NCBI GenBank assembly: GCA_043803765.1 | Contig: JAZDJQ010000012.1 | Location: forward strand, 66,238 to 130,237 | Source of the DNA: Candidatus Iainarchaeum sp. | GTDB taxonomy: Archaea; Iainarchaeota; Iainarchaeia; Iainarchaeales; VGJJ01 | Direction of reading: 5' to 3' | DNA length: 64,000 nt | In this document: positions 4,610-57,919 of the stretch, in pieces | How the letters are laid out: each line of letters opens with the position of its first letter | How positions within the stretch are numbered: position 1 is the stretch's first letter | Notes under the pieces: generated by a model | The model's database searches: none | What the model saw: only the letters and a program-made list of their open reading frames with translations | Told to the model about the DNA's origin: nothing | Position numbers and translations under genes: made by a program

Positions 4610-7600
4610 CTATTTCACGATGCATTGTTGGCCTGCATTTTTTTCTTGTGATTCAATAGCATTCAGTACTTCTTTTGGGTTCCAGAAGAATTCTGTTTTT
4701 GCCCCGCTGTTGCGTACGCATACTGCTCTTTCCGTGATGAGGTTCAATATTTCTTCGATGCTGGTAAGCGTGTCCCCCGGGGTGTTTCCGGGAATAGCAT
4801 TGGTTCCGTTTAGTGGGATTCCTGCTCCGCTTATTCCTTCTCCTATGAATTGCATCTCGCTCTTCCATGCGGTGCGGTTAATACTGGATAGGCTTTCCTG
4901 CGGGGTATAGAATACGCTCTTCAAGAAAACGTTTCCTGTGTGAATCGTATCTCCGCACCATTCGAATCCATAACTAATATTTTCCTGTGGTCCCACTAGT
5001 GCACAATCCGTGTTAATTGCACTGGTATCATACTTTCGATTATATGAATCGAGGAGTGATTTGTCTTCAAAGTCTCGGCAGTTCGCTCCTACACCGTACC
5101 ATGGATTTCCCTGCACCCCGATATAGGATTGCGATGTGTCATTGTTTACTCCTACTGAATAGAATCCGAACACGTCGCTCTGGGCGCTCTTGTTTCCTAT
5201 TTTCATCATGACGGGAGTAGCGAATGAAGGCGACCATTTTATGCTCAATGAGTTCGTGCTGTTTTTTGTTACCGTGAGAATGTTTCCTCTCTCCAAACTA
5301 TTGAGTATTGTGTATGCGTTCACGGTGCTTGATTGTACGCTTGCAACGGGGGTTGAATCCGGAATATCAACGGTTACTACTTGGGAATGGGGCTCGTCAT
5401 TCACGACTATCTTTTCTCCAGAGAAGTTGACTCCGTATCCTACTCTTCCTTGTCCGTCATCCGTTCCAATCAATCCGTTGAATGGCAGGCTGTAGAATGG
5501 ACTATTATCCTCAATTGTGCTTGTCTTCTCTAATAATACGTTCACGATGGCGTCCGGTTCTTGTCCATTAACGAAACTCATTTCAGGTCCATCAAAGTTG
5601 ATATCCAATGTTACGTCGTATATTCCGGGGCCGGGCAATAGGTATCCTTCTACTGTGGGAACGCCTCCTTCTCTTTTCACAACCCAATGGTTTCTATTCT
5701 TGAACAATAATGCAATTCCATTCATGGGGTCAGTATAATACGATGGGGCGTCAAAGAAGCTTACTTTGTTGGCGTACCGGTCAAAGTCAGTAAAGAAGTC
5801 TGGACTGAATCGGTCCTGCATGAGGTGGGCACGGAAACTAACTAATTCGAGTATTTCGTCCTTTCCTATTCCGTTTGGATAATTCACTCCTATTCCCGCT
5901 TCCTCGTTTGCTGCAATAAATTCGCTCAAGCGCAATGTAGTAAAGGGTTGGCAGGCTACAAGGGCGCTGGATGTTCCAATAAAGAACTCCGTAGTAATCG
6001 TGTCGGATGCGGGAACGCTGTTGGAGCAGTTCTCACAATCCTCTGGAATAATGGTGGCCGTTATTTCATAGTGTCCTTCGGGTAAATTGGTGGCAGTGAA
6101 CCCCAAACTAACCTTGCTTCCTCCTATTGGAATCAACACCATCTTGGATTGGGTGATGGGCGCAGTGAGAGCGTCTTTTATCTTATACGAAATGCTTACT
6201 TTCGCATTATTCATTGCGGGCGTCTTGTTTTCTATTCCTACTATCATATTCACATCCGTTGGGGCTGTTTTGTCAACGCTTAATGAGGCGATTCCAATAT
6301 CGGCTGCTGGAATGGGCTGTGTTTTTACTCCTGATAATTGGTCTTCTAATGGGCACTCGAATGGGGCATTGGCTTCAATGAATTCTCGTAATAATTGTAC
6401 TTTCTGGATTAACTCGATAGAGAATTGGGTGGCGTCACAATAGATGTGCGCGCTATTCCCTTCATTATCCACTTGTCCTTGGTCGCACGCGTAGGCATCA
6501 ATGTCATTAAAGTTCCACGCAAACGCAACGCGTGGAGCCGCGTTGATTCCTGTCTTCCCTGTCTTCTCGGAGAACGTATCGCAATCCAGTGCAATGGGCG
6601 GGACTCCTGTTTTGATTAATGTTTCGGGAGTGAATGAATTATACTGCAAGTGGAACCGTGCTTTTGAATCCAATATGTCTTCCTCTTTCAAATCATCCGG
6701 TGATGGAATCTTATTCTTGTATTCAACATCTTGTGCATAAACAAATCGTTCTCCTGTTACAAGCAGGTTGCGGAAAATGGTTTCGTTCACAAACTTGGAA
6801 ATATTGGTAAACGTGAGGTTGAATGCTTCTACTCTTCCTAGTATGGGTTGTTCTAATGCAATCTTTGGAAGAATCGCCACATCGTCTTCTTTCACTTCGA
6901 TATCCTTATCCTTTACTTTCTCATCGCTTCCCTTCTCTCCTCCAATCACTTTGATTTCATCAATGACCAAATCCTTTCCAATAATCGTTACATCAAACTC
7001 CTCATCATCCGACATGAAGTAATGGGTTAGTCCGGCTACAATCGTGGTGACGGCGAATGAAACGAATGGGTTTCCAGTGCCAAGCGAAACCGCTCCCACT
7101 ACCTTGTTGAGTATTCCCCCAACGAGGGACTCGCCAATCTTGGAGCCCAAACTGGATTGTTGAGTAGCTCCCCCGCCAGTGGCATCCAATGACTTAGTTT
7201 CGCCAGTACCCGCAACAAACCCTGTGATGGGGGATGTGGGAATCGACTCGACAGAATATTTCTTAGTAATAGCCTCAACTTTTTCATTGTCAGCAGGGAC
7301 AATAGTTAACATGTACCCCCCATCGAAAACACCTCCTTCAATCGTTGCACCTACAACTGTAATAGTTGATCCTGAATGAGAGAATTTAACGCCATTAATG
7401 GTAAGTTCTTTAGCATATTTATCGGCCGCTGTGGCATTCTTGAATGTTATCGCGTTACCCGCCGTAGATTTCACATCGCCTTCCTCAATCCAAAATTCAG
7501 TTCCTTTACCAGAATTTTTTTCACCAGAATCGGGAGAGAGATCGCTTTTCGGTTCCTCTCCATTCCCTGGGGTTCCCTCTGTCTCCGTAACCTCATCCTT

Positions 7601-29563: not shown

Positions 29564-30097
29564 CTAGACTAATTCCTGCGCATGAAGCCGCGTGATGATT
29601 TGATGCCGGTGTACCCATCCCGCGTATATCAGGGCAAACCCTGCAATGAGCAGGACGCGGAATAACACATCGTGCGTGAGCATGGCAAATGAAAGGGGAG
29701 TGTGTTCCAATTGGAGAATGGTAACCATCATGCGTGCTAAATTAAATCCATAGAGCAGGATGATTCCAATGATGATTCCTTTGATGCGCGCATACAACGA
29801 ATGTTTCTTCGTTGCCAGGATGGCGGTTCCAAGCAAAATGAATTCAATTAATCCCGTACATCGTGGGGAAATCTCAATATTTTTTCCATTCATCCAAAAT
29901 GAAATGGGATTGTTTCCATCGGTTGTTTGAATTCCTACTCGATTCAATAGTTCGCGCACATGTTCTGCTTCAATGATTTGCAAACGATATTCGTGTGGTG
30001 AAAAAAAAAGGAAGAAAATAGTAAATAATACTCCCCACCCTACAAGGAAAGTAATCAGTGTTTTTCTCCATTCGGTTGGGGAATGCAGGTTAACCAT
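29564..30097 (-). CDS. 177-aa polytopic membrane protein, candidate minimal exosortase/archaeosortase-family transpeptidase.
   Basis: About 5 TM helices. Cys80 sits in ISPRCTGL (compare the CSG active-site context). Arg122 is in GFNLAR and Arg164 follows, so the Cys-to-Arg spacing is +42/+84, similar to the ArtA catalytic triad spacing (+41/+80). Family assignment is from memory of motifs, not a search. Confidence 0.4.
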   Translation of the reverse strand: MVNLHSPTEWRKTLITFLVGWGVLFTIFFLFFSPHEYRLQIIEAEHVRELLNRVGIQTTDGNNPISFWMNGKNIEISPRCTGLIEFILLGTAILATKKHSLYARIKGIIIGIILLYGFNLARMMVTILQLEHTPLSFAMLTHDVLFRVLLIAGFALIYAGWVHRHQIITRLHAQELV

Positions 30098-33391: not shown

Positions 33392-33649
33392 ATGACAGAT
33401 GTGGCGATTGTAACCGTAAGCGAAAAAGGGCAGATTGCCCTCCCTAAAAAAACGCGGGAGCGATGGGGAATTCATAAGGGGGACAAATTATTGTTGTTGG
33501 AAAACAAGGGAAAAATCGTTTTGGCACCCGTTAAAGGGTCAAAAGAAGCTGCGGATGTGGATGAGATGCAGTGGATAATGGGGGTGTCCGCTCAAGTCTT
33601 GAAGGAGGATTGGGATTACAAGGGGGATGATGTCTGGGATGAGTTATGA
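33392..33649 (+). CDS. AbrB/MazE-type antitoxin (SpoVT/AbrB swapped-hairpin domain).
   Basis: MTDVAIVTVSEKGQIALPKKTRERWGIHKGDKLLL is a typical AbrB/MazE fold signature. Overlaps the downstream toxin gene by 23 nt. The ORF track starts at GTG 33335; ATG 33392 is preferred. Confidence 0.7.
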   Translation: MTDVAIVTVSEKGQIALPKKTRERWGIHKGDKLLLLENKGKIVLAPVKGSKEAADVDEMQWIMGVSAQVLKEDWDYKGDDVWDEL

Positions 33650-33989
33650 GCAGGGGGATATTGTATTAATGTATTATCCCAATACGGATCTTTCAACGGG
33701 TAAAAAAAGACCCGCATTAGTAGTATCAAATAGTGCGTTTAATTCTCGACAGGATGATCTGATTACGTGTCTCATTACGAGCAATATCGAACAAGACCCG
33801 TTGGGAGTCATTATTGATTTCCATGATTTATCAGAGGGGAGTTTGCCGGTAAGGAGTCGCATTAAACCGTATCGAATTTTCACGGCTAAAAAAGGGGTCA
33901 TTGAAAAAAAGCTGGGGGTAATCTCGAAACGGAAATTAAATGAGACGTTTGAAAAAATACAAAAGGTAATACGGCCCGCCGTGGTGTAA
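33627..33989 (+). CDS. MazF/PemK-family toxin (mRNA interferase).
   Basis: GDIVLMYYP...KKRPALVVSNSAFN...LITCLITS matches the Kid/PemK/MazF pattern. Coupled to the upstream antitoxin. Confidence 0.75.
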   Translation: MMSGMSYEQGDIVLMYYPNTDLSTGKKRPALVVSNSAFNSRQDDLITCLITSNIEQDPLGVIIDFHDLSEGSLPVRSRIKPYRIFTAKKGVIEKKLGVISKRKLNETFEKIQKVIRPAVV

Positions 33990-40455: not shown

Positions 40456-40566
40456 TTATGCAGGTATCTTTAGTCTAAAAGTAATGGCTTGCGGATACGT
40501 GTAAGGGAGCAGGTTTGTCGTTGCCGAGGCCTTCTTTATAAAAACGACAAGTGTTCTTCACAAGGA

Positions 40567-42903
40567 ATGCCTCCTCAACGATTCGCTCAAAAGAAGGAAA
40601 GCGGGAACCGGCTCACTCCCCGTAATGAGAATGCATCTCCTTCTATTGGAAGCCTTTACAAGGATATTCCGGTTTCGAGTGATGCTTTTTTTGCTAAAGA
40701 GGATTTGGCTATTCCTAAAGAGCATGGATTCATTCGTTTCTGTCGGGACATGTACAAGCGTTTTCCGGGGATGGGAAAAGGAGCAGTATTCACGGAAGAG
40801 TATCAGGAAGCGGTTACGTTTTTAGGTTGGAGTTTGCGTCCGGAAGAATTTTCATCCGCAGTAAAAGGAAGCATGGTGTCAATACTACTAATTGGTGGAT
40901 TTCTTTCTGTTTTATTAGGAATTGTTTTTGGAGAAACCATTGGCGCCCTGTTGGGAGTAAGCGGACTTGTTTCCATTGTGTATCTTTTTTTTCCTGTTAT
41001 TGTTATTGCCGTGGTGGTTTCCAATTACATTCAAAAATTTCCCATTGCCGAAGCGCGTAGAGAAAAAATTCGTGCGCTTACATACGTTCCGGACATGATT
41101 GGATACATGATTATGTCCATGAAGCTTGTTCCTAATTTGGAAAAAGCAGTGGAGTTTTCCGCACAGCATGGAAAAGGAAGAATAGCGGAAGAATTTAGAC
41201 GGATCATTTGGAATACGCAATTAGGAGTATATACTACGGTAGCAGAGGGTTTGGATGATTTAGCCTATAAGTGGGGAAAGTTTTCATCCGAGTTCAAGCA
41301 GGCATTGATGAATATTCGCGCGTCGGTGTTGGAAAACACGGAAGCAAAGCGTTACCAATTGCTTGACAAAACAATGGATGATGTGTTGGAAAGTGTGCAA
41401 AATAAAATGGAACAATACGCGAGGGATTTATCTCAACCTTCTACCACATTGTTTTATGTGGGGGTGTTGCTTCCGCTAATACTTATTATTATTCTCCCGG
41501 TTGGAAGCGCGTTCTCGGGTTCTCCTCTTGCCCAGACATGGGTGTTGTTCCTCGTATACGATATTTTTCTTCCCATTTTAGTTATTTGGTTTGGGAATAA
41601 CTTGTTGCAATCCCGTCCTCCCACGTATACTCCTCCTGAGATACCGGATGGTTTTCCCGGGCTTCTTCCAAAAGATACGGTGCGCGTGGGAAAAGGAACA
41701 ATGAATGTATGGGTGGTAGTGGTAGGAATCATGATAGTAGGGGGTTTAACGTCCGGCTACCTGCACTTATTTGGTTTGGGGGTGGGAGAAGTGGATGCTC
41801 CCGGTTCATTGTATGTGCTTGCTCCTGACCATACTCTTCAACGGGTATTAGATGTGGATAGGAAACCGTTAGATTGGTTTGAGGAGAATGGAACACGGGA
41901 GTCTCAGCTCGTAGCACAAGGACTTTCGGTAGAGGAAGCGCGTGTTATTGTAGGAACGGAGAAAACGCGTTTTTTTGCTCAATCGGAAAATGATGTAACG
42001 CCCTATAATCTCATTTTTGGTATTCTGATAACGGTAAGCATGGCGATTGCCGCCTATGTTGGATTAACTCTCGCTGAGAAAAGAAAGATACAGCAGAAAT
42101 ACATGCAGATGGAATCCGAATTCAAGGATAGTTTGTATGTGTTAGCGTCTCGTTTAGGAGAAAACAAGCCGATTGAGGATGCATTGCGTCACGCGCAAAC
42201 GTTTTTGCCTAACAACATTGTTTCGCAGGAAGTGTTTGGTAAGACAGTAGATAATATTCATGTATTGGGAATGCCATTGGAGAGCGCGGTATTTGATCCG
42301 GCGTATGGTAGTTTGCGCAATAATCCTTCGCAAATGATTACGAGTTCAATGAAGATTGCCATTGACTCGGTTAGATTAGGGGTGGGAGTAGCCGCACGCA
42401 CGCTTATTTCTCTTTCACGGCAAATTGGAAATGCGGAAAGAGTAAGTAAAATGCTTACGATTCTCATCAAGGATATTACGGGAACAATGAAGACGGTATC
42501 GGTGTATATCGCCCCAATCGTATTGGGGATAACGACTAGTTTGCAGCGTGTAGTAATTGTTACATTAGTGAGTGTGAGTGCATCCAGTGAAGGAAGCCAA
42601 ACCATTGACCCTAATTTAGGGGCGAATATCCCTGGAGTCGAAAGCTTTGGAAGCACGGATATTGGTTCATTCATTAAAGCAGACGTGATTGCTACTCTTG
42701 CAACGCCGGGAGAATTCTTGTTGATTGTGGCGATTTATGTGATTGAGCTCGTGATTATTATGAATTATTTTGTCACCCTCATTGAGGAAAACAATAAACT
42801 TACCGCGAAACAGAATGCGGCAACCCAGCTCCCCATTGCGATTATATTGTTTGTTATTACGGTGATTGTGTCCAATTCATTAGTAGCAGGAAACTTTGGG
42901 TGA
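40567..42903 (+). CDS. Polytopic membrane protein, putative pilus platform protein of the FlaJ/TadC/PilC (T2SS-F) type.
   Basis: Two cytoplasmic domains carry the T2SSF-like signature: VPDMIGYMIMSMKLVPNLEKAV and FKDSLYVLASRLGENKPIEDAL. Each is followed by a TM bundle. Sits next to the secretion ATPase and pilin genes. Start is uncertain; the ORF track begins at a TTG at 40489. Confidence 0.5.
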   Translation: MPPQRFAQKKESGNRLTPRNENASPSIGSLYKDIPVSSDAFFAKEDLAIPKEHGFIRFCRDMYKRFPGMGKGAVFTEEYQEAVTFLGWSLRPEEFSSAVKGSMVSILLIGGFLSVLLGIVFGETIGALLGVSGLVSIVYLFFPVIVIAVVVSNYIQKFPIAEARREKIRALTYVPDMIGYMIMSMKLVPNLEKAVEFSAQHGKGRIAEEFRRIIWNTQLGVYTTVAEGLDDLAYKWGKFSSEFKQALMNIRASVLENTEAKRYQLLDKTMDDVLESVQNKMEQYARDLSQPSTTLFYVGVLLPLILIIILPVGSAFSGSPLAQTWVLFLVYDIFLPILVIWFGNNLLQSRPPTYTPPEIPDGFPGLLPKDTVRVGKGTMNVWVVVVGIMIVGGLTSGYLHLFGLGVGEVDAPGSLYVLAPDHTLQRVLDVDRKPLDWFEENGTRESQLVAQGLSVEEARVIVGTEKTRFFAQSENDVTPYNLIFGILITVSMAIAAYVGLTLAEKRKIQQKYMQMESEFKDSLYVLASRLGENKPIEDALRHAQTFLPNNIVSQEVFGKTVDNIHVLGMPLESAVFDPAYGSLRNNPSQMITSSMKIAIDSVRLGVGVAARTLISLSRQIGNAERVSKMLTILIKDITGTMKTVSVYIAPIVLGITTSLQRVVIVTLVSVSASSEGSQTIDPNLGANIPGVESFGSTDIGSFIKADVIATLATPGEFLLIVAIYVIELVIIMNYFVTLIEENNKLTAKQNAATQLPIAIILFVITVIVSNSLVAGNFG

Positions 42904-42960
42904 ATGGAAAGAAAAAGAGGAGAATGCGCTGTGCGAAAATTTTATCCAATTAGAAAAAAA

Positions 42961-43434
42961 ATGAATAACAAAGGACAGGCGTTTGAGGCCTACCGTGTTC
43001 TCATTGCGATGGTTATTTCTCTTGCCATCCTTACCATTATTCTTTCCGCGGTAACGTATTTTGACACGTTGCGTGAAAAAGTAAGCATTGATACATTGTA
43101 TTCCTCGTGGAAGAGTGCGGTTGATTCTCCTAATGGAAAAGTCGTGTTGGCTAAGGACTTGTATTTTACCTCTCAAACCACTTTTGGCAAACGCCAGTTT
43201 GCATTACAAGCGGGGTTGGATGAGGCCTGCATTGGTTTTGATGCGGAAAAGGCGGCCGGATTCATTTTGAATGATGCTAATCCCGATAAGCCGGTTGTGA
43301 CGTTAACGCGCGGAGTAGTAGGAAACGTGTACATGGAGTGCCAGACTGAAAACTTCCTCCTTGAGCCGGCTCCCCCTGATTGTTATGCGTACTGCCTGAT
43401 TTCTTTTGGAAAGCTCATTGCCGGACCTATCTAA
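42961..43434 (+). CDS. Archaeal type IV pilin-like protein with a class III signal peptide.
   Basis: MNNKGQAFEAYRVLIAMVISLAILTIILSAV has the KGQ prepilin-peptidase site followed by a hydrophobic helix. Confidence 0.7.
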   Translation: MNNKGQAFEAYRVLIAMVISLAILTIILSAVTYFDTLREKVSIDTLYSSWKSAVDSPNGKVVLAKDLYFTSQTTFGKRQFALQAGLDEACIGFDAEKAAGFILNDANPDKPVVTLTRGVVGNVYMECQTENFLLEPAPPDCYAYCLISFGKLIAGPI

Positions 43435-49776: not shown

Positions 49777-52700
49777 TTAGAATCCAATCAATCGGAGGAA
49801 GAATTGGAATAATAGGATGAGTGGATTCAGTGCCGCAATGAAAAAAAGTGAAGTCGATTCAGGAATAGGTAGGTAACATGATTGACTGCATACGCCTCCG
49901 CAATCAATTCCAAGTTCTCCCCTATCATATTGTCCATTCTCGCATGGAGACAAACTTTGAACAATACACCCTTCGTCTATTTCCAAATCGCAGTCATCAT
50001 CTATTCCATTGCATAACTCAATAGATGGAACGCACGATAGAGAAGGATTGTCTCCACCCCCTCCGCTGTTGCCGCTTCCACTATCTCCATCTCCGCCACC
50101 GTTTCCGCCATCTCCTTCTCCTGAATCAGAGTAATCGAAATCATCCTCATCGTCATCATCCTCATTTCCGCTATCGGGTGAAGTGACTTCGAAATTCAAT
50201 AAAACGAAGTTGTCGGTGATGTCGGTTTCGACTATGTTTGAATTTCCACCAGAAAAATCATAGATAATGGGGAAAAGAGACCCGATAAAGCGGTAGGTTC
50301 CCTTGCTTAGATTGAGTGCAGTCGGTTCTACCGTGATGGCGAGTGATGTGGTTCCTTCTGGAATGTCTATTCCCTTTTCCACGGAGGTAACGGGAAGCAA
50401 TGGTTGTGGATAAATGGAATTGTAGTTGTATGTCCGGGCGTTAAAGAAACTTCCAAGAACGAACGGGTCGGGAGACAAGTAGAAAACTTCTGCCATTTTC
50501 CAGAAATCATCCAGTTCCTGGCAGTGGAACGCCCGTTGAGGATCCGGATGGTCGATTCGGCAGAATACCCCAAATATCATACTGCGTGAGTGCGTGTACC
50601 CTTCTCCTGCACTGTGTAGTTTTTGGATAATAAGTTGGAGAGTGGCTTTTTGTCCTAGGGATACGCTGTCAAAGGCCGTGTTTGTTGTGAGGCTTCCTAC
50701 ATTAGGTTCTATGTTCGTGGATCCTCCTATAGTGATGCTGGCAACATTGGAATAGGGGGATAATCCAATGACGGATCGGGCGGCGATGCGGTAATAATAG
50801 GTTCCTTGTTGCACCGTGCCATCTGCATACGTAATCGTTCCGGGTGGCAACCCGTTTTTGATAATGCTCCAATTGAAGTTGTCCGTGCTCCGCTCTACAA
50901 TGTATTCGATTTCATCATCCGCATTGTCATTCCAAATTAGTGTCACGATTCCTCCTTGGATGGTAGCAGTCAAATTGGATGGGGCATTAGGTAAGGGGTC
51001 GTTTATCTGCAAAAACAATGATCCTGATTTCATTCCATTGGGGTGAATCACATACACTTCATGCTGTCCGTTTCCTAGGGAATTTATTTGATTTAGGGAA
51101 AGAGTATACGTGAGTTGTCCGGATGTAACCCATAATGGAGTAATATCTCCCAGACTTCCTATGTGAACTTTGGCGCTCATCTTGAAATTGGTTCCAGTAA
51201 ATGCGAGCAAGGAAGCAGTGTCGGATTCGATATTGTTGGGGGTTATCGCATTCAATGTGGGGGAAATATCTGCAAATAATACTGGAAGGGAATTGCTGTA
51301 TTCTGTTCCTTGTTTTATTCTCACGTTGTGCGTTCCGAGTCCCAGTTGTTGCTGGAACGATGCGGATAATCCTGCCTTGACTTGGGTGGAGTTGACAAAG
51401 GAGCTGAGCGCGAGAACTTTTCCATCGATATCCACTTGATCGGTTGCCGTAAAATTGGACCCATTCAACGTGAGCGTGGTGCCAATCTCATAGGCAATCG
51501 TTGTAGGAGAAAGGGAAGTGAGTGCTAATGTTTGGTCGACTCCCTGCACTGGAACAGCGTTTGAATTCTGTCCACTTTGCGTAACCTGAACAAAGTGGGT
51601 TCCTATTCCAAGCGAGTTGGTTTGGGAAATTGATAGGTTTACCGTGAGAGTAGTTGAATCCACAAAAACGGGAGTCAGAGTCAAACTTCCAATTTTTACT
51701 GTAGCACTGGGTGTGAATCCTACTCCTTTGAGAGTAAGAGAAGCTGTTTTTCCTACTCCAAATTCAGATGGAATGACTTGTCCAAGATAAAAAGTAGCGC
51801 TTGAGGAATATTGGCATCCTTGATAGAAGCTAGTGAAAGCAGGAACACACGTGTAAGGGGGAATAGGATTGATAGCGGTTCCATAGGATTGTAATGGAAC
51901 CACATCGCATGTTTCCCCTGAGTCCAAAACGGAATTTCCGCAATAGGGTTTTCCCGAACAGGAAGCGGAATCAATCACCCAAGAAGATGTAGCCCAGTGA
52001 TAAGTACCGCATCCGATATCTTGGCAATCGGTTAAGAGATTGCAATTGTCATCCGTTCCATTATTGCATGACTCTGCCACGTTGGGATTGATGTTGGGAT
52101 TCCCATCATGGCAATCCCCTGCACAAGTAGTAACGCCATCTCCATCTGCATCCGTACAGGATGGAGTATAATTGGTTGAAAAATAACCATTAAGAAAACC
52201 CTGATTGGCGGCATTGGGAACCCCCATGAAATAAGTGATTCCGCACACTTCATCATCATTCAGCGATTGGATTTGAATTCCTTTTTCGCTCGTCCGGGTG
52301 CGTTGATTGTGAATAGCTTGAAAGCTTTCGGCAAAATCTTGGAAATATTGGTCATACTCTGGAATGAAAGACGGGTCTGTTTTGCGGATGGATTCCGCTA
52401 ACGCCAATGTGGGGCATAGCCCTATTTGCTCCTGCGAGTCGGAGCCTTTCTCTCCATCAAAAAGGGTGTATTTTTCTCCTTGCGTGGAAGTAGCCGCCTT
52501 GTAAACGAACATGTAATAATCGGAGTCGAATCCCTTCCCTTCATTCAACGGATAATCATTGTAGAGAATTCCATTCCGCACAGCAGTAGGATTCTTGTAG
52601 AGATAATGATACACAAAATAGAGTCCATCCTGCACATACTGCCGAATAGTGGCATATTGGGCATCCGTAGTACGGAACACGTCTTCCCCTGCCGCGGCAA

Positions 52701-54738
52701 TACCCATCATGACAAGATAGTGATGAAACGGGTGAAGGGTGTTATACTCATATGTTCCAACTAGGGATGGAAAGTATTTCACAGGAAAGTTTTCTCCCGT
52801 GTACGGATTCACTCCTTGGGATCCTTCTTCTCCTTTGTTCCGGGCTAAATCAATCCAATCGAGTACTGCACTTGCAATCTGCTTGTATTCCGGATTCAGT
52901 GTAAGGGAATACGCCATGCTTGCCTGCTTGAGTGAACGGCCATCACTTCTTCCTTGGGAAGACCCTCCAGTAACCCCTCCTCCATTTTTCCAAAACCAGT
53001 AAAAGGAAAGAGAGCCCGTCTGGGCTTTGGCATCCCCTATGTACCACGCCATTTGGTCATCGGTTAGCATGTACCGATACCATAATACCCCATTAGAAAA
53101 GTGGGCAGTCTCCCATGCGTTCCAACCATGATGATACGGATTCTGACCGCTGGCCTGAGCATAATCCCAAATGTTTTGTCCATAAGCATCAATGCGATGC
53201 GAAAGAGGAGTTCCCTTCGTTGGATGACAAAAACCAAGAATATCAGGAGCATTATAGGTTTGGCCGCACTTCGTTGGACTGGTGGGACCTGTTCCTACTC
53301 CTTCGATAAGGGGAGCGGCATACGCATTGGGAAGAGCTTTAGGATTCTTGATCGTGGAATACCCTACTACGTAATTGGAACCATATGTTTCACTATACAT
53401 TTGGAACCGCATGGCATCCACTGCTCTTTTTTGGCAATGGTCCTGGCAACTGTAAAGGTAAGCCACCAATTGGGGTGGTTCAGCTTGGTAGTAGTCATAG
53501 TATCCTCCCGAGCGGAGGTCCTTATTCAATAAATTGGGGGAAAAACGATAACCTTTGTTCCCGTTGATCGTGTCCGTGTAGATAGTAGTATATTGTGATG
53601 TAGCCAGTCCTTTCACATCAAGGGATGGATTCACTTTCAAAGGGTTGGGGACTTCCGAAAAGAAATAACCGCTTATTTTGTTCCAGCGGGAAAGAGTTTG
53701 ACCCGAATTAATCACATATTCTTCTATTGGATGCTGGACGAATGGCACGCCAAACGTTATCACAAATCGGGTTAGGAAACCCTGTCCGGATCCAATGAAG
53801 TTGCTTTGCTGGGCTAGACTCGGCCCCTCATTATGAGTGTCTTTCAATAATTGTTGTCCATTTGCAGGCATGATTACTAATTCGGTGTGCGTAGAAGTGG
53901 TCTCCACCTCATTGATGGCCGTAGGAAAAATGAATGATTCATCCATCAAATAGGTAGTGTGCGCGTCGCCAGGAGTATCCACTACTATTTTTGCATCCGT
54001 GTAAAAAATAGCCCCATAATTTGGATTCTCATACAAGTAGCCATTATTGAATCCTCCTGTTGGCTGCGGCTCGGGGTCTTCATCCAAGTTATTTGAATTG
54101 ACTAGGAAATGGTCCACCGTAACATAGGGTTTTCCCGAGTAGGCGGTGATGAGGAAAACGGAAGAAAAAAGATGAGTCAACTCTTCGCTACCAGTTGCCG
54201 GGTCATGCCGTTTAACGATACGCCATGTTTTTTCCACGGGACCATTACGCACCAGCGTAACATTCCCAGAATAGGATGGACTGTCCACATCCACAAAAGT
54301 AGTATATAACCCTCCTTTGATATCATGCACTTCTACTTTCATTTTGCCATTTGTAAGAAAGGAATTAACCCTCGAATCCATCACAAAAGAAGGAGGGCTT
54401 CCTGAGTAAGTACCAATAGTGAAAATCTTTTCTTGATTTGGATTTAGTGTGACTAAAACTTTGGCAACGGCCGTTTTGACATAGCCGCTCTTATAGAAAC
54501 TCGTGGCATCTGCTTGCGTGATAAGATTCCCCGTTCCGCTCTGCAATTGGATTCCTGAAATTTGATCGGGTGTTTTTTCCCCATCCGAAAAGGATAGAGG
54601 AACGTGCACGGGATGATCGGTTACTAATCCCCCGGCGTTTTGAATAAACACCTCGGAGTCGGTTAAGGCCGAAACAGAAATGCTCCAACAGAACCAAAAA
54701 AATAAGACGATCCAAAAAAAATGGGGAAACGTTTTCAT
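49777..54738 (-). CDS. Large secreted multidomain protein (1653 aa). Contains a signal peptide, IPT/TIG-like and FN3 repeats, MopE-like Cys/Asp metal-binding motifs, an acidic Gly/Asp-rich linker and an extreme C-terminal hydrophobic tail.
   Basis: Signal peptide MKTFPHFFWIVLFFWFCWSISVSA. FN3 segment PNAPSNLTATIQGGIVTLIWNDN…YYYRIAARS. MopE-like segment CAGDCHDGNPNINPNVAESCNNGTDDNC. C-terminus …SLFFIAALNPLILLFQFFLRLIGF. Confidence 0.85.
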   Translation of the reverse strand: MKTFPHFFWIVLFFWFCWSISVSALTDSEVFIQNAGGLVTDHPVHVPLSFSDGEKTPDQISGIQLQSGTGNLITQADATSFYKSGYVKTAVAKVLVTLNPNQEKIFTIGTYSGSPPSFVMDSRVNSFLTNGKMKVEVHDIKGGLYTTFVDVDSPSYSGNVTLVRNGPVEKTWRIVKRHDPATGSEELTHLFSSVFLITAYSGKPYVTVDHFLVNSNNLDEDPEPQPTGGFNNGYLYENPNYGAIFYTDAKIVVDTPGDAHTTYLMDESFIFPTAINEVETTSTHTELVIMPANGQQLLKDTHNEGPSLAQQSNFIGSGQGFLTRFVITFGVPFVQHPIEEYVINSGQTLSRWNKISGYFFSEVPNPLKVNPSLDVKGLATSQYTTIYTDTINGNKGYRFSPNLLNKDLRSGGYYDYYQAEPPQLVAYLYSCQDHCQKRAVDAMRFQMYSETYGSNYVVGYSTIKNPKALPNAYAAPLIEGVGTGPTSPTKCGQTYNAPDILGFCHPTKGTPLSHRIDAYGQNIWDYAQASGQNPYHHGWNAWETAHFSNGVLWYRYMLTDDQMAWYIGDAKAQTGSLSFYWFWKNGGGVTGGSSQGRSDGRSLKQASMAYSLTLNPEYKQIASAVLDWIDLARNKGEEGSQGVNPYTGENFPVKYFPSLVGTYEYNTLHPFHHYLVMMGIAAAGEDVFRTTDAQYATIRQYVQDGLYFVYHYLYKNPTAVRNGILYNDYPLNEGKGFDSDYYMFVYKAATSTQGEKYTLFDGEKGSDSQEQIGLCPTLALAESIRKTDPSFIPEYDQYFQDFAESFQAIHNQRTRTSEKGIQIQSLNDDEVCGITYFMGVPNAANQGFLNGYFSTNYTPSCTDADGDGVTTCAGDCHDGNPNINPNVAESCNNGTDDNCNLLTDCQDIGCGTYHWATSSWVIDSASCSGKPYCGNSVLDSGETCDVVPLQSYGTAINPIPPYTCVPAFTSFYQGCQYSSSATFYLGQVIPSEFGVGKTASLTLKGVGFTPSATVKIGSLTLTPVFVDSTTLTVNLSISQTNSLGIGTHFVQVTQSGQNSNAVPVQGVDQTLALTSLSPTTIAYEIGTTLTLNGSNFTATDQVDIDGKVLALSSFVNSTQVKAGLSASFQQQLGLGTHNVRIKQGTEYSNSLPVLFADISPTLNAITPNNIESDTASLLAFTGTNFKMSAKVHIGSLGDITPLWVTSGQLTYTLSLNQINSLGNGQHEVYVIHPNGMKSGSLFLQINDPLPNAPSNLTATIQGGIVTLIWNDNADDEIEYIVERSTDNFNWSIIKNGLPPGTITYADGTVQQGTYYYRIAARSVIGLSPYSNVASITIGGSTNIEPNVGSLTTNTAFDSVSLGQKATLQLIIQKLHSAGEGYTHSRSMIFGVFCRIDHPDPQRAFHCQELDDFWKMAEVFYLSPDPFVLGSFFNARTYNYNSIYPQPLLPVTSVEKGIDIPEGTTSLAITVEPTALNLSKGTYRFIGSLFPIIYDFSGGNSNIVETDITDNFVLLNFEVTSPDSGNEDDDDEDDFDYSDSGEGDGGNGGGDGDSGSGNSGGGGDNPSLSCVPSIELCNGIDDDCDLEIDEGCIVQSLSPCENGQYDRGELGIDCGGVCSQSCYLPIPESTSLFFIAALNPLILLFQFFLRLIGF

Positions 54739-55507: not shown

Positions 55508-56239
55508 TCAATCAATCATGCGAAAAAATAATACGAATCCTACTAAAATGGGTTGGTGAATGAGATAGATGAGAAGTGATTTTCTTCCCAACCATGCAAT
55601 AATGGAAGCGCTCTGTCGAGTAAGAAAAAAACATTCTCCCACCCTACCATATCGTTTATACCAATAATGACCAAACCCCATTCCAAGCAACATCAATCCA
55701 AACCATGGCAGTAAGGGAAAATAATCAAACGTGGTAAAAATGAAAGGAAAAATTCCAATCCAGTGGGGAAAAGAAAAAAGAGAAGGAGTAAGTGATAATC
55801 CTATTCCAATAAGTAAGACTATTGTTCCTATTCCTATTGCAACGCGAGGATGTTGCGCAAAAGGAATGGATAATATCATTCCTGCTCCTAAAAAGTGAAG
55901 AATGCCAAACCAGATAGTATACGCAGGGAATAGAAAGTATGTTACAAGGGTGATAATTCCTCCTAATCCAATCAAAAATAGTCCTCTTCTCAAAAGATAG
56001 GTTGTTACATTTTTTCCTTTTCGATTAAAAGCAAGCGGAATCGTTATTCCTGCAAGAAAAACAAACATTCCTGCAATGATGCGTGCAAACCAAAACCATG
56101 CACCCGTATGGATGCTTATTTCCAACACGTTAAAATAATTCAAATCAAAAAAAAAATGAAATAGTATCATCCCTAGCACCGCAAGACCGCGAAGAAAATC
56201 AAAAAAAACGATTCGTCCCAGAAAAATACCTACCGGCAT
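55508..56239 (-). CDS. DUF1624/HGSNAT-like membrane acyltransferase family protein.
   Basis: RIVFFDFLRGLAVLGMILFHFFFD is the typical N-terminal motif of this family. About 9 TM helices. Start taken at ATG 56239. Confidence 0.55.
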   Translation of the reverse strand: MPVGIFLGRIVFFDFLRGLAVLGMILFHFFFDLNYFNVLEISIHTGAWFWFARIIAGMFVFLAGITIPLAFNRKGKNVTTYLLRRGLFLIGLGGIITLVTYFLFPAYTIWFGILHFLGAGMILSIPFAQHPRVAIGIGTIVLLIGIGLSLTPSLFSFPHWIGIFPFIFTTFDYFPLLPWFGLMLLGMGFGHYWYKRYGRVGECFFLTRQSASIIAWLGRKSLLIYLIHQPILVGFVLFFRMID

Positions 56240-56246
56240 AACTTTC

Positions 56247-56549
56247 TCACACAACACCCATGAATATCCACACAAACCGTTGTCGTGCTACTTTATACAC
56301 GCGCTTCTCCTCATCTGTGAGAGAATACACAACTTTTTTTCCCTCTTTTTCCTCGTGAATAAGACCTATTTCTTTGAGTGACTTTAATGCAGGGTAAATG
56401 GTTCCCGGGCTGGGTCGTTCTCCTTTTCTTTTTTCCAGTTCAATGGCAATTTCCTGTCCGTGCATCGACTTTTTAGAAAGGAGAAAAAGAATAAGGAAAG
56501 AGAGCAATCCCCGCATGTCGCAGCAAGTCTTTTCTTTTGTTTTCACCAT
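56247..56549 (-). CDS. PadR-family transcriptional regulator.
   Basis: MRGLLSFLILFLLSKKSMHGQEIAIELEKRKGERPSPGTIYPALKSLKEIGLI is a PadR winged-helix signature. Confidence 0.8.
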   Translation of the reverse strand: MVKTKEKTCCDMRGLLSFLILFLLSKKSMHGQEIAIELEKRKGERPSPGTIYPALKSLKEIGLIHEEKEGKKVVYSLTDEEKRVYKVARQRFVWIFMGVV

Positions 56550-56610: not shown

Positions 56611-57252
56611 CTAATTTATTTTCTTCCCATTTTCATAAACAGTCATTTTGCGTTTGCGTAATTCTTTGAAAAAGTACACTGGAGGAACCACTGCTTCTGG
56701 AGCAAAACTTCCTCTTTCAGAAATTACTTTTTCCTTTATCATTTGAGCGATAATACTTGCTGGCATGCCCGTGTCAATGTTACACCCGGCATCCATCCAA
56801 CCAGGAAGCGTATTTACAATACACTCAATCAGCAACATTTTTCGTTCGTGGTTTTTCTTTCCGTAGATACGAAGCCACAAGTTTTCCTTTTCTTTATAAC
56901 CTTTTGGAAATTCAATATCTTTGAATGTTTGAGTTACAACATCGATTGGACGAACGTATTTCCCATCAACTAAAACTTTATCTTGGCGGCCTAATCCAAC
57001 GTCAATTATTTTCTTGATGACGTCAAATGAATGTGGTGGAAATTCAGCAAAAAAACGGACATTTTTCAATCCCTTATGCTTAAAATAGTGATAAAACGTA
57101 TACGTTTCCGGATGTCGAACATAAAAACAATACTCTTTTCCTACGAATGGTTCTTTTGTTCGTTTCAATGAATCCATTGGGCGGGATTTAACGAATTTTC
57201 CACCCTCAACATTAGTAGAGGGTTCGGTAAACTCCTCGATTATACTTTCCAT
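56611..57252 (-). CDS. Probable C-terminal part of the same saccharopine-dehydrogenase-like gene (same frame, downstream of the TAG).
   Basis: Same reading frame as 57310..57765. The 57-nt spacer has no further stops and translates as *IEVGFAWNSNIKKFVVPFS-MESII…. Confidence 0.45.
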   Translation of the reverse strand: MESIIEEFTEPSTNVEGGKFVKSRPMDSLKRTKEPFVGKEYCFYVRHPETYTFYHYFKHKGLKNVRFFAEFPPHSFDVIKKIIDVGLGRQDKVLVDGKYVRPIDVVTQTFKDIEFPKGYKEKENLWLRIYGKKNHERKMLLIECIVNTLPGWMDAGCNIDTGMPASIIAQMIKEKVISERGSFAPEAVVPPVYFFKELRKRKMTVYENGKKIN

Positions 57253-57309
57253 CGAAAATGGAACAACAAATTTCTTTATGTTCGAATTCCATGCAAAACC
57301 GACTTCAAT

Positions 57310-57765
57310 CTAATAAAGTGAGTCAAATTTTTGTGCAGCATGATTGAGCATAACGTTACCGATGCCCGGAACCGAACCGCACCCCGTAATATGGGTGAGG
57401 CCTTTACGTTTCAACGTGCCGTGAAGTGCAAATTGTTTTCGTGTCATGGGTATTTCAGAACCCAAATCAATGGAATGAATTCCTGCTTTGACGCTTGCCT
57501 TCAGGATGTTTAAATTCCAATCTCCTTCAACACAGTTTACAACCACACTCGCTCCAGATTGACGAAATGTTTTAACCATTTTTGGAATGTTACGAGCATC
57601 AAGATACTCAAATTTTGTTTTTTTATAACGACCTAATAAATGCTTGACTCTTTCCTTATCGCGTCCGCATAATAAAACTGCACACCCATTTTCTAAAAGG
57701 TCACGTGCAACAATACGTCCTTGTATCCCGGTCGCTCCAATCACAACGAAATCAAACATTACCAC
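57310..57765 (-). CDS. Saccharopine dehydrogenase-family NAD(P)-binding domain, the N-terminal part of a gene interrupted by an in-frame TAG.
   Basis: FDFVVIGATGIQGRIVARDLL is a Rossmann motif. …ITGCGSVPGIGNVMLNHAAQ matches the GxDPG..N region of the family. Confidence 0.7.
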   Translation of the reverse strand: MVMFDFVVIGATGIQGRIVARDLLENGCAVLLCGRDKERVKHLLGRYKKTKFEYLDARNIPKMVKTFRQSGASVVVNCVEGDWNLNILKASVKAGIHSIDLGSEIPMTRKQFALHGTLKRKGLTHITGCGSVPGIGNVMLNHAAQKFDSLY

Positions 57766-57919
57766 CAGGCGATAGTTTACTAGAATATAAAAATATGTTT
57801 AGAAAATGAAGACGGATACCTATAAACGGGTTGTTGGCATACTCATCCTGCCTATTAGAATCAAAAATAATGACCGGAAAGACAAACCTTTTTACAACTG
57901 CCTATTATGGAAATACATT

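Follow-up and report, generated by a model that had tools for sequence, protein, structure and literature searches.

A premature in-frame TAG in a saccharopine dehydrogenase-like gene of Candidatus Iainarchaeum sp., probably a recent nonsense mutation

A single gene of the saccharopine dehydrogenase superfamily in this tiny DPANN archaeon of groundwater type carries a premature in-frame TAG codon at positions 57312-57310 on the minus strand, as is plain from the sequence and its ORF list, and this is the only stop that divides a recognisable gene in the window, by which we mean the whole 64-kb stretch of DNA analysed here. From the pattern described below we infer that the base is real in the organism and that function has been lost, a real and very recent nonsense mutation that gave rise to a nascent pseudogene or a null allele being in our judgement the probable explanation. 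An earlier note on this DNA had offered three options, a recent nonsense mutation, a sequencing or assembly error, and programmed read-through of UAG, and the first of these is favoured by the absence of an interruption in any of 80 orthologues, by a TCG codon lying one step away from the stop, and by the lack of decay. The stop is truly there in the sequence, but as a finding it is ordinary and of little consequence beyond annotation: MFH0970421.1 and MFH0970420.1 should be merged into a single gene marked as disrupted, and the reads should be checked before the saccharopine dehydrogenase-like enzyme is counted in any metabolic reconstruction of this MAG.

The joined reading frame extends on the minus strand from an ATG at 57759 to a TAG at 56611 and comprises 382 codons, while homologues recovered by database search are mostly 383 aa in length; the earlier estimate that the two halves sum to about 380 aa, the normal size for the family, thus stands. 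The sequence and ORF list also bear out the reported arrangement, in which the minus-strand ORF 57765..57310 terminates in the TAG at 57312-57310, the downstream ORF 57252..56611 shares its frame, and the 57-nt spacer between them (57309-57253) contains no stop and translates as IEVGFAWNSNIKKFVVPFS. The upstream part (57313..57759, minus strand; 149 codons) matches exactly the 149-aa NCBI protein MFH0970421.1, and contains a complete Rossmann NAD(P)-binding domain, a helix at residues 130-143 and the beginning of the strand that follows, the secondary structure being read from the model of P0002. The premature TAG itself (57310..57312, minus strand, CTA on the plus strand), evident in both sequence and translation, is followed by a downstream part of 232 codons (56614..57309, minus strand) that holds the remainder of the Sacchrp_dh_C domain fully intact and corresponds to MFH0970420.1; a database search returned a protein, P0100, that is 100% identical to it. 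The natural terminator (56611..56613, minus strand) is also a TAG and is located at the conserved C-terminus of the family (...ENGKKIN), and the aligned homologues all end at this position with the single exception of P0054, which ends one residue later.

The true start is likely to be the ATG at 57759, because it is preceded by a Shine-Dalgarno-like GGTGG (57762..57766, minus strand) situated 2 nt upstream of it, within the upstream sequence cctGGTGGtaATG, and because the NCBI 149-aa call begins there; the GTG at 57765 given as the start in the ORF list falls within the GGTGG motif and is an unlikely start. Two CDS are annotated at the locus by NCBI, MFH0970421.1 (149 aa) and MFH0970420.1 (232 aa), of which the second is given an ATT start immediately 3' of the TAG. 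This ATT looks like an artefact of stretching the CDS to maximise homology and not like an actual start.

That both halves belong to one saccharopine dehydrogenase superfamily gene, as the earlier note had claimed, is supported by two Pfam domains that both score above their cut-offs. PF03435 (Sacchrp_dh_NADP) matches residues 7-125 (E=5e-12, 46.7 bits against a gathering cut-off of 25.1), and the glycine-rich motif GATGIQG is seen in this N-terminal NAD(P)-binding Rossmann domain; PF16653 (Sacchrp_dh_C) covers the joined product from residue 133 to residue 372 (E=2e-15, 58 bits; cut-off 31). The Sacchrp_dh_C match is a single one that crosses the TAG, and we are therefore not dealing with a chance juxtaposition of two ORFs; its 58 bits also provide the homology of the downstream ORF to the C-terminal domain of the family on which the original proposal depended. 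Moreover, alignment with the homologues places invariant or near-invariant family residues within the 19-codon spacer, namely G154, W157, N160 and F164-S169, so that the spacer does correspond to conserved residues, a point that the earlier note had singled out for checking.

More than 1000 homologues were found by database search, and among the matches listed almost all are 383 aa long and derive from DPANN archaea, with Diapherotrites/Iainarchaeum, Pace-, Woese- and Nanoarchaeota represented; full-length identity reaches 80-81% in the best of them. Comparison of the family profile with solved structures gives carboxyspermidine dehydrogenases and related 'saccharopine dehydrogenases' (4ina, 8deb, 8h4z) as the best matches, with E values of about 1e-31 to 1e-28, and a Foldseek search with the model of P0002 returns 8deb, 8h4z and 4ina at TM scores of 0.85-0.87 (E about 1e-33) and an identity of only 23-25%. 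The NCBIfam equivalog for carboxynorspermidine synthase (NF043000) gives 47.7 bits with the window product and 63.3 bits with P0002, both falling short of the cut-off of 800. In view of this low equivalog score and of the 23-25% identity, we regard the family as a distinct, DPANN-centred and putatively carboxyspermidine-dehydrogenase-like subfamily. Homologues that are 52-58% identical are also present on contigs binned as Gammaproteobacteria, Saccharibacteria, Patescibacteria/Yanofskybacteria, Omnitrophota and Nitrosopumilaceae, and the occurrence of such non-DPANN-binned loci (L048-L050, L052, L055, L062, L069, L071-L073, L077-L080 and L083) points to misbinned DPANN contigs or to horizontal transfer. 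The family is a more interesting by-product of the analysis than the stop, in that it represents a 383-aa enzyme, 52-81% identical across many DPANN lineages, that is often paired with an FAD oxidoreductase.

The residue replaced by the stop is not a conserved one. Among 110 full-length aligned homologues the TAG column contains T in 47, S in 27, D in 19, A in 7, E in 5, K in 4 and Q in 1, and at the 60 loci, out of 80 representative ones, that allowed the column to be placed, it is occupied by T (38), D (9), S (6), K (3), E (2), A (1) and G (1), with TCG being used twice; direct translation of the orthologous loci in all 80 representative genomes reveals no internal stop in any of them. The two closest relatives have the Ser codons TCC and TCA at this position. 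The most parsimonious ancestral codon would be TCG (Ser), and since TCG does occur at the column, the stop requires no more than a single C>A change in the coding strand (plus strand, G>T at 57311). The course of events that we propose would thus begin with one gene encoding a DPANN-type oxidoreductase of the saccharopine dehydrogenase superfamily, with a carboxyspermidine-dehydrogenase-like fold, in which the TAG would have arisen, by a single and very recent substitution, from a codon for a non-conserved Ser/Thr, the simplest candidate being TCG. As TAG is an ordinary terminator in this archaeon, translation should end after residue 149 and release the Rossmann domain only, and the 232 downstream codons, which bear most of the family-invariant residues, would stay untranslated because they have neither a start codon nor a ribosome-binding site of their own. 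The locus would then be a pseudogene in its earliest stage, or a null allele that happened to be sampled from the population, and further damage would not yet have had time to accumulate.

Several measures agree in showing no decay apart from the TAG. No frameshifts and no stops other than the premature TAG are present in the gene. Of the columns conserved in at least 95% of homologues, 40 lie upstream of the TAG and 67 downstream; the window copy departs from the conserved residue at none of the former and at one of the latter, which is typical of intact copies, and in a three-way comparison it has 7 upstream and 10 downstream lineage-specific substitutions, as against 10 and 18 and 16 and 13 in its two closest intact relatives. 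Having the fewest such changes of the three closest sequences, it appears to carry a young lesion, and the lack of decay implies that the TAG is either very recent or not inactivating. Of the features by which pseudogenes are recognised, a premature stop within a conserved domain, with relatives intact, is present here, whereas beyond the stop there is no sign of relaxed constraint or of additional lesions, and if this is a pseudogene it must then be a very young one. We note that a gene free of any decay, in a family so strongly conserved, would be expected equally if the gene were still functional, through either a consensus error or some read-through.

The first of these possibilities, that the TAG is peculiar to the deposited MAG consensus and the organism has a sense codon (probably the Ser codon TCG) and an intact 382-aa gene, we consider unlikely, although it is the main rival to a real mutation. 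The stop could in that event stem from an allele of a minority strain or from a miscalled base, and such an origin would agree with a gene that is otherwise flawless and has fewer lineage-specific changes than its intact relatives, with the single base change that is enough to explain the TAG, and with the intactness of all 80 orthologues examined, which suggests strong selection to keep the gene. The source is moreover a MAG encountered once, the proteins of which are singletons in the protein collection, and no second assembly of the locus was found either by look-ups of the exact 232-, 213-, 151- and 149-aa products and of clusters, or by DNA pattern scans of genome and metagenome contigs in which the TAG codon was masked. 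There is also precedent, in that at least one 'interrupted' archaeal gene proved to be full-length on resequencing, suggesting a sequencing error (PMC8211752). The quality of the surrounding sequence argues against an error, however. Elsewhere in the window no interruption occurs in some 58 kb that code for protein, of which giant ORFs, among them ORFs of 7.3-7.6 kb, account for more than 8,800 codons, and no indel-type errors are visible; the sequence is therefore of high quality, its error rate must be very low, and a random error is a priori unlikely. Substitution errors are rare in assembled consensus sequences, and the number of error-made stops expected in 64 kb would be far below one, a figure taken from typical consensus accuracy and not measured here. 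Pseudogenes are common in archaea, making up as much as 8.6% of the protein-coding sequences annotated in S. solfataricus (PMC8211752), and from this frequency together with the quality of the window we infer that a real mutation is several-fold likelier than a consensus error.

The genomic surroundings of the gene were examined in 82 loci with 3-kb flanks. The commonest neighbour is an FAD-dependent oxidoreductase of about 394 aa, present at 33 of the 82 loci, and no cluster of the size of a carboxy(nor)spermidine decarboxylase is prominent among the commonest neighbours, part of these clusters having been scanned against Pfam. In L004 the oxidoreductase (5419-6579), annotated there as DAO family (PF01266), lies directly downstream of the saccharopine dehydrogenase-like gene, and the association suggests a conserved two-enzyme pathway. 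The window is collinear with L004 for the saccharopine dehydrogenase-like gene (80%), PadR (68%), HGSNAT (42%) and a giant protein (37%), and both the DAO-MscS-LigB block and the Pirin gene of L004 are absent across the entire 64-kb window. The missing DAO partner is a possible hint of pathway loss, which would sit well with a nonsense mutation; it is weak evidence because the close relative L001 also has no DAO nearby and yet has an intact saccharopine dehydrogenase-like gene, and for the same reason we reject it as proof of pathway decay and treat it as suggestive only. In the window the PadR-family regulator ORF (56549..56247, minus strand) overlaps the TTG-started ORF of an HGSNAT-like membrane protein (56275..55508, minus strand) by 29 nt (56247-56275); as 12 nt separate the PadR and HGSNAT genes in L004, the TTG start of the HGSNAT-like gene has probably been called too far upstream.

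UAG is the codon for pyrrolysine, and the TAG could specify this residue or, with TAG reassigned across the lineage, be an ordinary sense codon, although we judge this to be exceedingly improbable. Of 35 likely genes in the window 12 terminate with TAG, 14 with TAA and 9 with TGA, and the saccharopine dehydrogenase-like gene is itself among those ending in TAG; the position of that TAG at the conserved C-terminus of the family indicates that it is read as a stop in this genome. Furthermore, when TAG is read as a sense codon the ORFs are lengthened no more than they are for TGA or TAA, and genome-wide recoding of TAG was rejected on the strength of these alternative-code ORF statistics and of stop-codon usage. 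A local pyrrolysine event calls for separate consideration, since in Sifarchaeia the use of pyrrolysine coexists with frequent UAG stops (PMC9723677), so that stop-codon usage alone cannot dismiss it, and the part of the genome inspected is the 64-kb window, out of a contig of at least 173 kb. Within that window neither ARAGORN nor Rfam finds a tRNA with a CUA anticodon, the only tRNA detected being tRNA-Asp, and no pyrrolysine genes are present among the approximately 26 window proteins scanned. The stop is not conserved and its column holds an ordinary, variable residue in the homologues (Ser, Thr or Asp), both of which argue against a local event, as does the lack of any relationship between this enzyme and the methylamine methyltransferases that use pyrrolysine. 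No report of pyrrolysine in DPANN archaea was found in the literature searched.

Continued expression of the gene in spite of the stop is a somewhat less remote, though still improbable, alternative to a nonsense mutation with loss of function. It would require either leaky or programmed read-through of UAG by a near-cognate or suppressor tRNA, or re-initiation at the adjacent AUU to give a two-piece enzyme. The perfect conservation of the downstream part is compatible with this, as is the ATT codon that follows the TAG and is taken as a start by PGAP, and a 141-nt segment surrounding the TAG has a more favourable fold than shuffled sequences do (z=-2.7), one that ranks, after correction for GC content, within the lowest 0.1% when 962 coding-strand stretches of the window are compared. 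Against read-through, neither the 80 representative orthologues nor the 110 aligned full-length homologues share the stop, and with the stop conserved in no relative nothing suggests an evolved mechanism. The established cases of archaeal stop-codon read-through are those of selenocysteine and pyrrolysine only (PMC8211752). Were the TAG indeed real and partly read through, or bypassed by re-initiation at the AUU, so as to keep a strongly conserved enzyme working in a DPANN archaeon, this would constitute archaeal stop-codon read-through without selenocysteine or pyrrolysine and would be notable for archaeal translation; we think it very improbable.

The favourable folding around the TAG is due mainly to a hairpin at 57240-57188 (minus strand; z=-3.5 relative to shuffles), which is located 70-120 nt downstream of the TAG. 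The hairpin lies within the coding sequence and has an ACCCUC...GAGGGU core and an energy of -18.8 kcal/mol. There is no structure directly 3' of the stop in the 60 nt following the TAG (z=0.04), the fold energy is the same whether the codon is TAG or TCG, and intact relatives form a different and less stable fold over the homologous stretch. An RNA recoding signal was rejected on these grounds, with the hairpin distal, the 60 nt after the stop unstructured, the TAG base not contributing and the relatives without the structure, and the hairpin is probably a chance feature that is incidental to the stop. The option of programmed UAG read-through raised in the earlier note is consequently disfavoured by the routine use of TAG terminators, the lack of a conserved stop, the unstructured 60 nt beyond it and the absence of a tRNA-CUA from the window, and we regard read-through of the TAG as unsupported.

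Re-initiation and a split gene meet with other difficulties. None of the candidate restart codons (ATT, ATA and ATG) is preceded by a Shine-Dalgarno-like motif, as compared with the GGTGG at the true start; such motifs are used patchily, at 9 of 33 starts in the window, and the argument against the restarts is therefore weak on this count. The first downstream ATG corresponds to residue 171 (M171), with only ATT and ATA codons before it, and a product initiated at M171 would miss the invariant segment G154-S169. Split genes are known in DPANN archaea, as in Nanoarchaeum, and the position of the break was considered in the AlphaFold (AF2) model of P0002, the closest named relative (pLDDT 92, pTM 0.91). 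The TAG column coincides with residue 151 of this model and falls inside the beta-strand 148-160, the first strand of the C-terminal domain, and not in a linker. An evolved split gene was rejected because the downstream piece has no start or Shine-Dalgarno sequence of its own, the break is inside a beta-strand and not at a domain boundary, and none of 80 relatives is split. A recent nonsense mutation thus continues to be the reading that we prefer.

The remainder of the window is dominated by giant minus-strand ORFs in window positions 1-29500 and 49777-54738, which comprise one of at least 1369 aa that runs off the left edge, followed by others of 2447, 2516, 2534 and 1653 aa. Scanning of two of these proteins, those of 2447 and 2516 aa, showed Ig-like and CarboxypepD_reg domains, and the pair are 27% identical to each other over 1300 residues. 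An exosortase/archaeosortase-like protein of 177 aa is encoded at 29564-30097, and together with the giant ORFs it probably constitutes a DPANN surface-protein cluster. A MazF/PemK-type toxin gene (33627-33989, plus strand; E=3.5e-16) is situated between the surface-protein genes, and the presence of GatD and of a class III signal-peptide protein agrees with an archaeal host. One further stop was considered as a possible second gene-splitting codon, a TGA at 42901-42903 (plus strand) that ends an 804-aa ORF (40489-42903) and is adjoined by the ATG of an in-frame 176-aa ORF (42904-43434). It was rejected in this role since neither flanking ORF has a Pfam match and an ATG lies directly 3' of the stop; the two are probably adjacent genes, a read-through fusion being the less likely reading.

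In comparison with known systems, the enzyme resembles CASDH/CANSDH (8deb, 8h4z and 4ina; NF043000) in its two-domain fold, its pair of Pfam domains and its similar length, and departs from them in its identity of 23-25%, an equivalog score far under the cut-off and an FAD oxidoreductase as its commonest neighbour. With the pyrrolysine-encoding methylamine methyltransferase genes the locus has in common an in-frame UAG inside an otherwise intact archaeal gene, but the UAG is not conserved in its orthologues, the enzyme family is a different one, and the column is variable and non-catalytic, with no tRNA-CUA in the window and no pyrrolysine gene among the proteins scanned. Split genes of the Nanoarchaeum equitans type are similar in their DPANN host and in having two annotated CDS that cover one ancestral protein; here, however, nothing but a stop codon comes between two pieces that adjoin each other in one frame, a canonical start and a ribosome-binding site are both missing from the second, and the break, which interrupts a beta-strand, is shared by no relative. 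From the nonsense pseudogenes and null alleles of prokaryotes the locus differs in the absence of secondary decay in the form of frameshifts, stops or excess substitutions, and the lesion is therefore either extremely recent or not real; it is like them in having a single premature in-frame stop in a conserved domain while all relatives examined are uninterrupted, and in a downstream part that is without an independent start.
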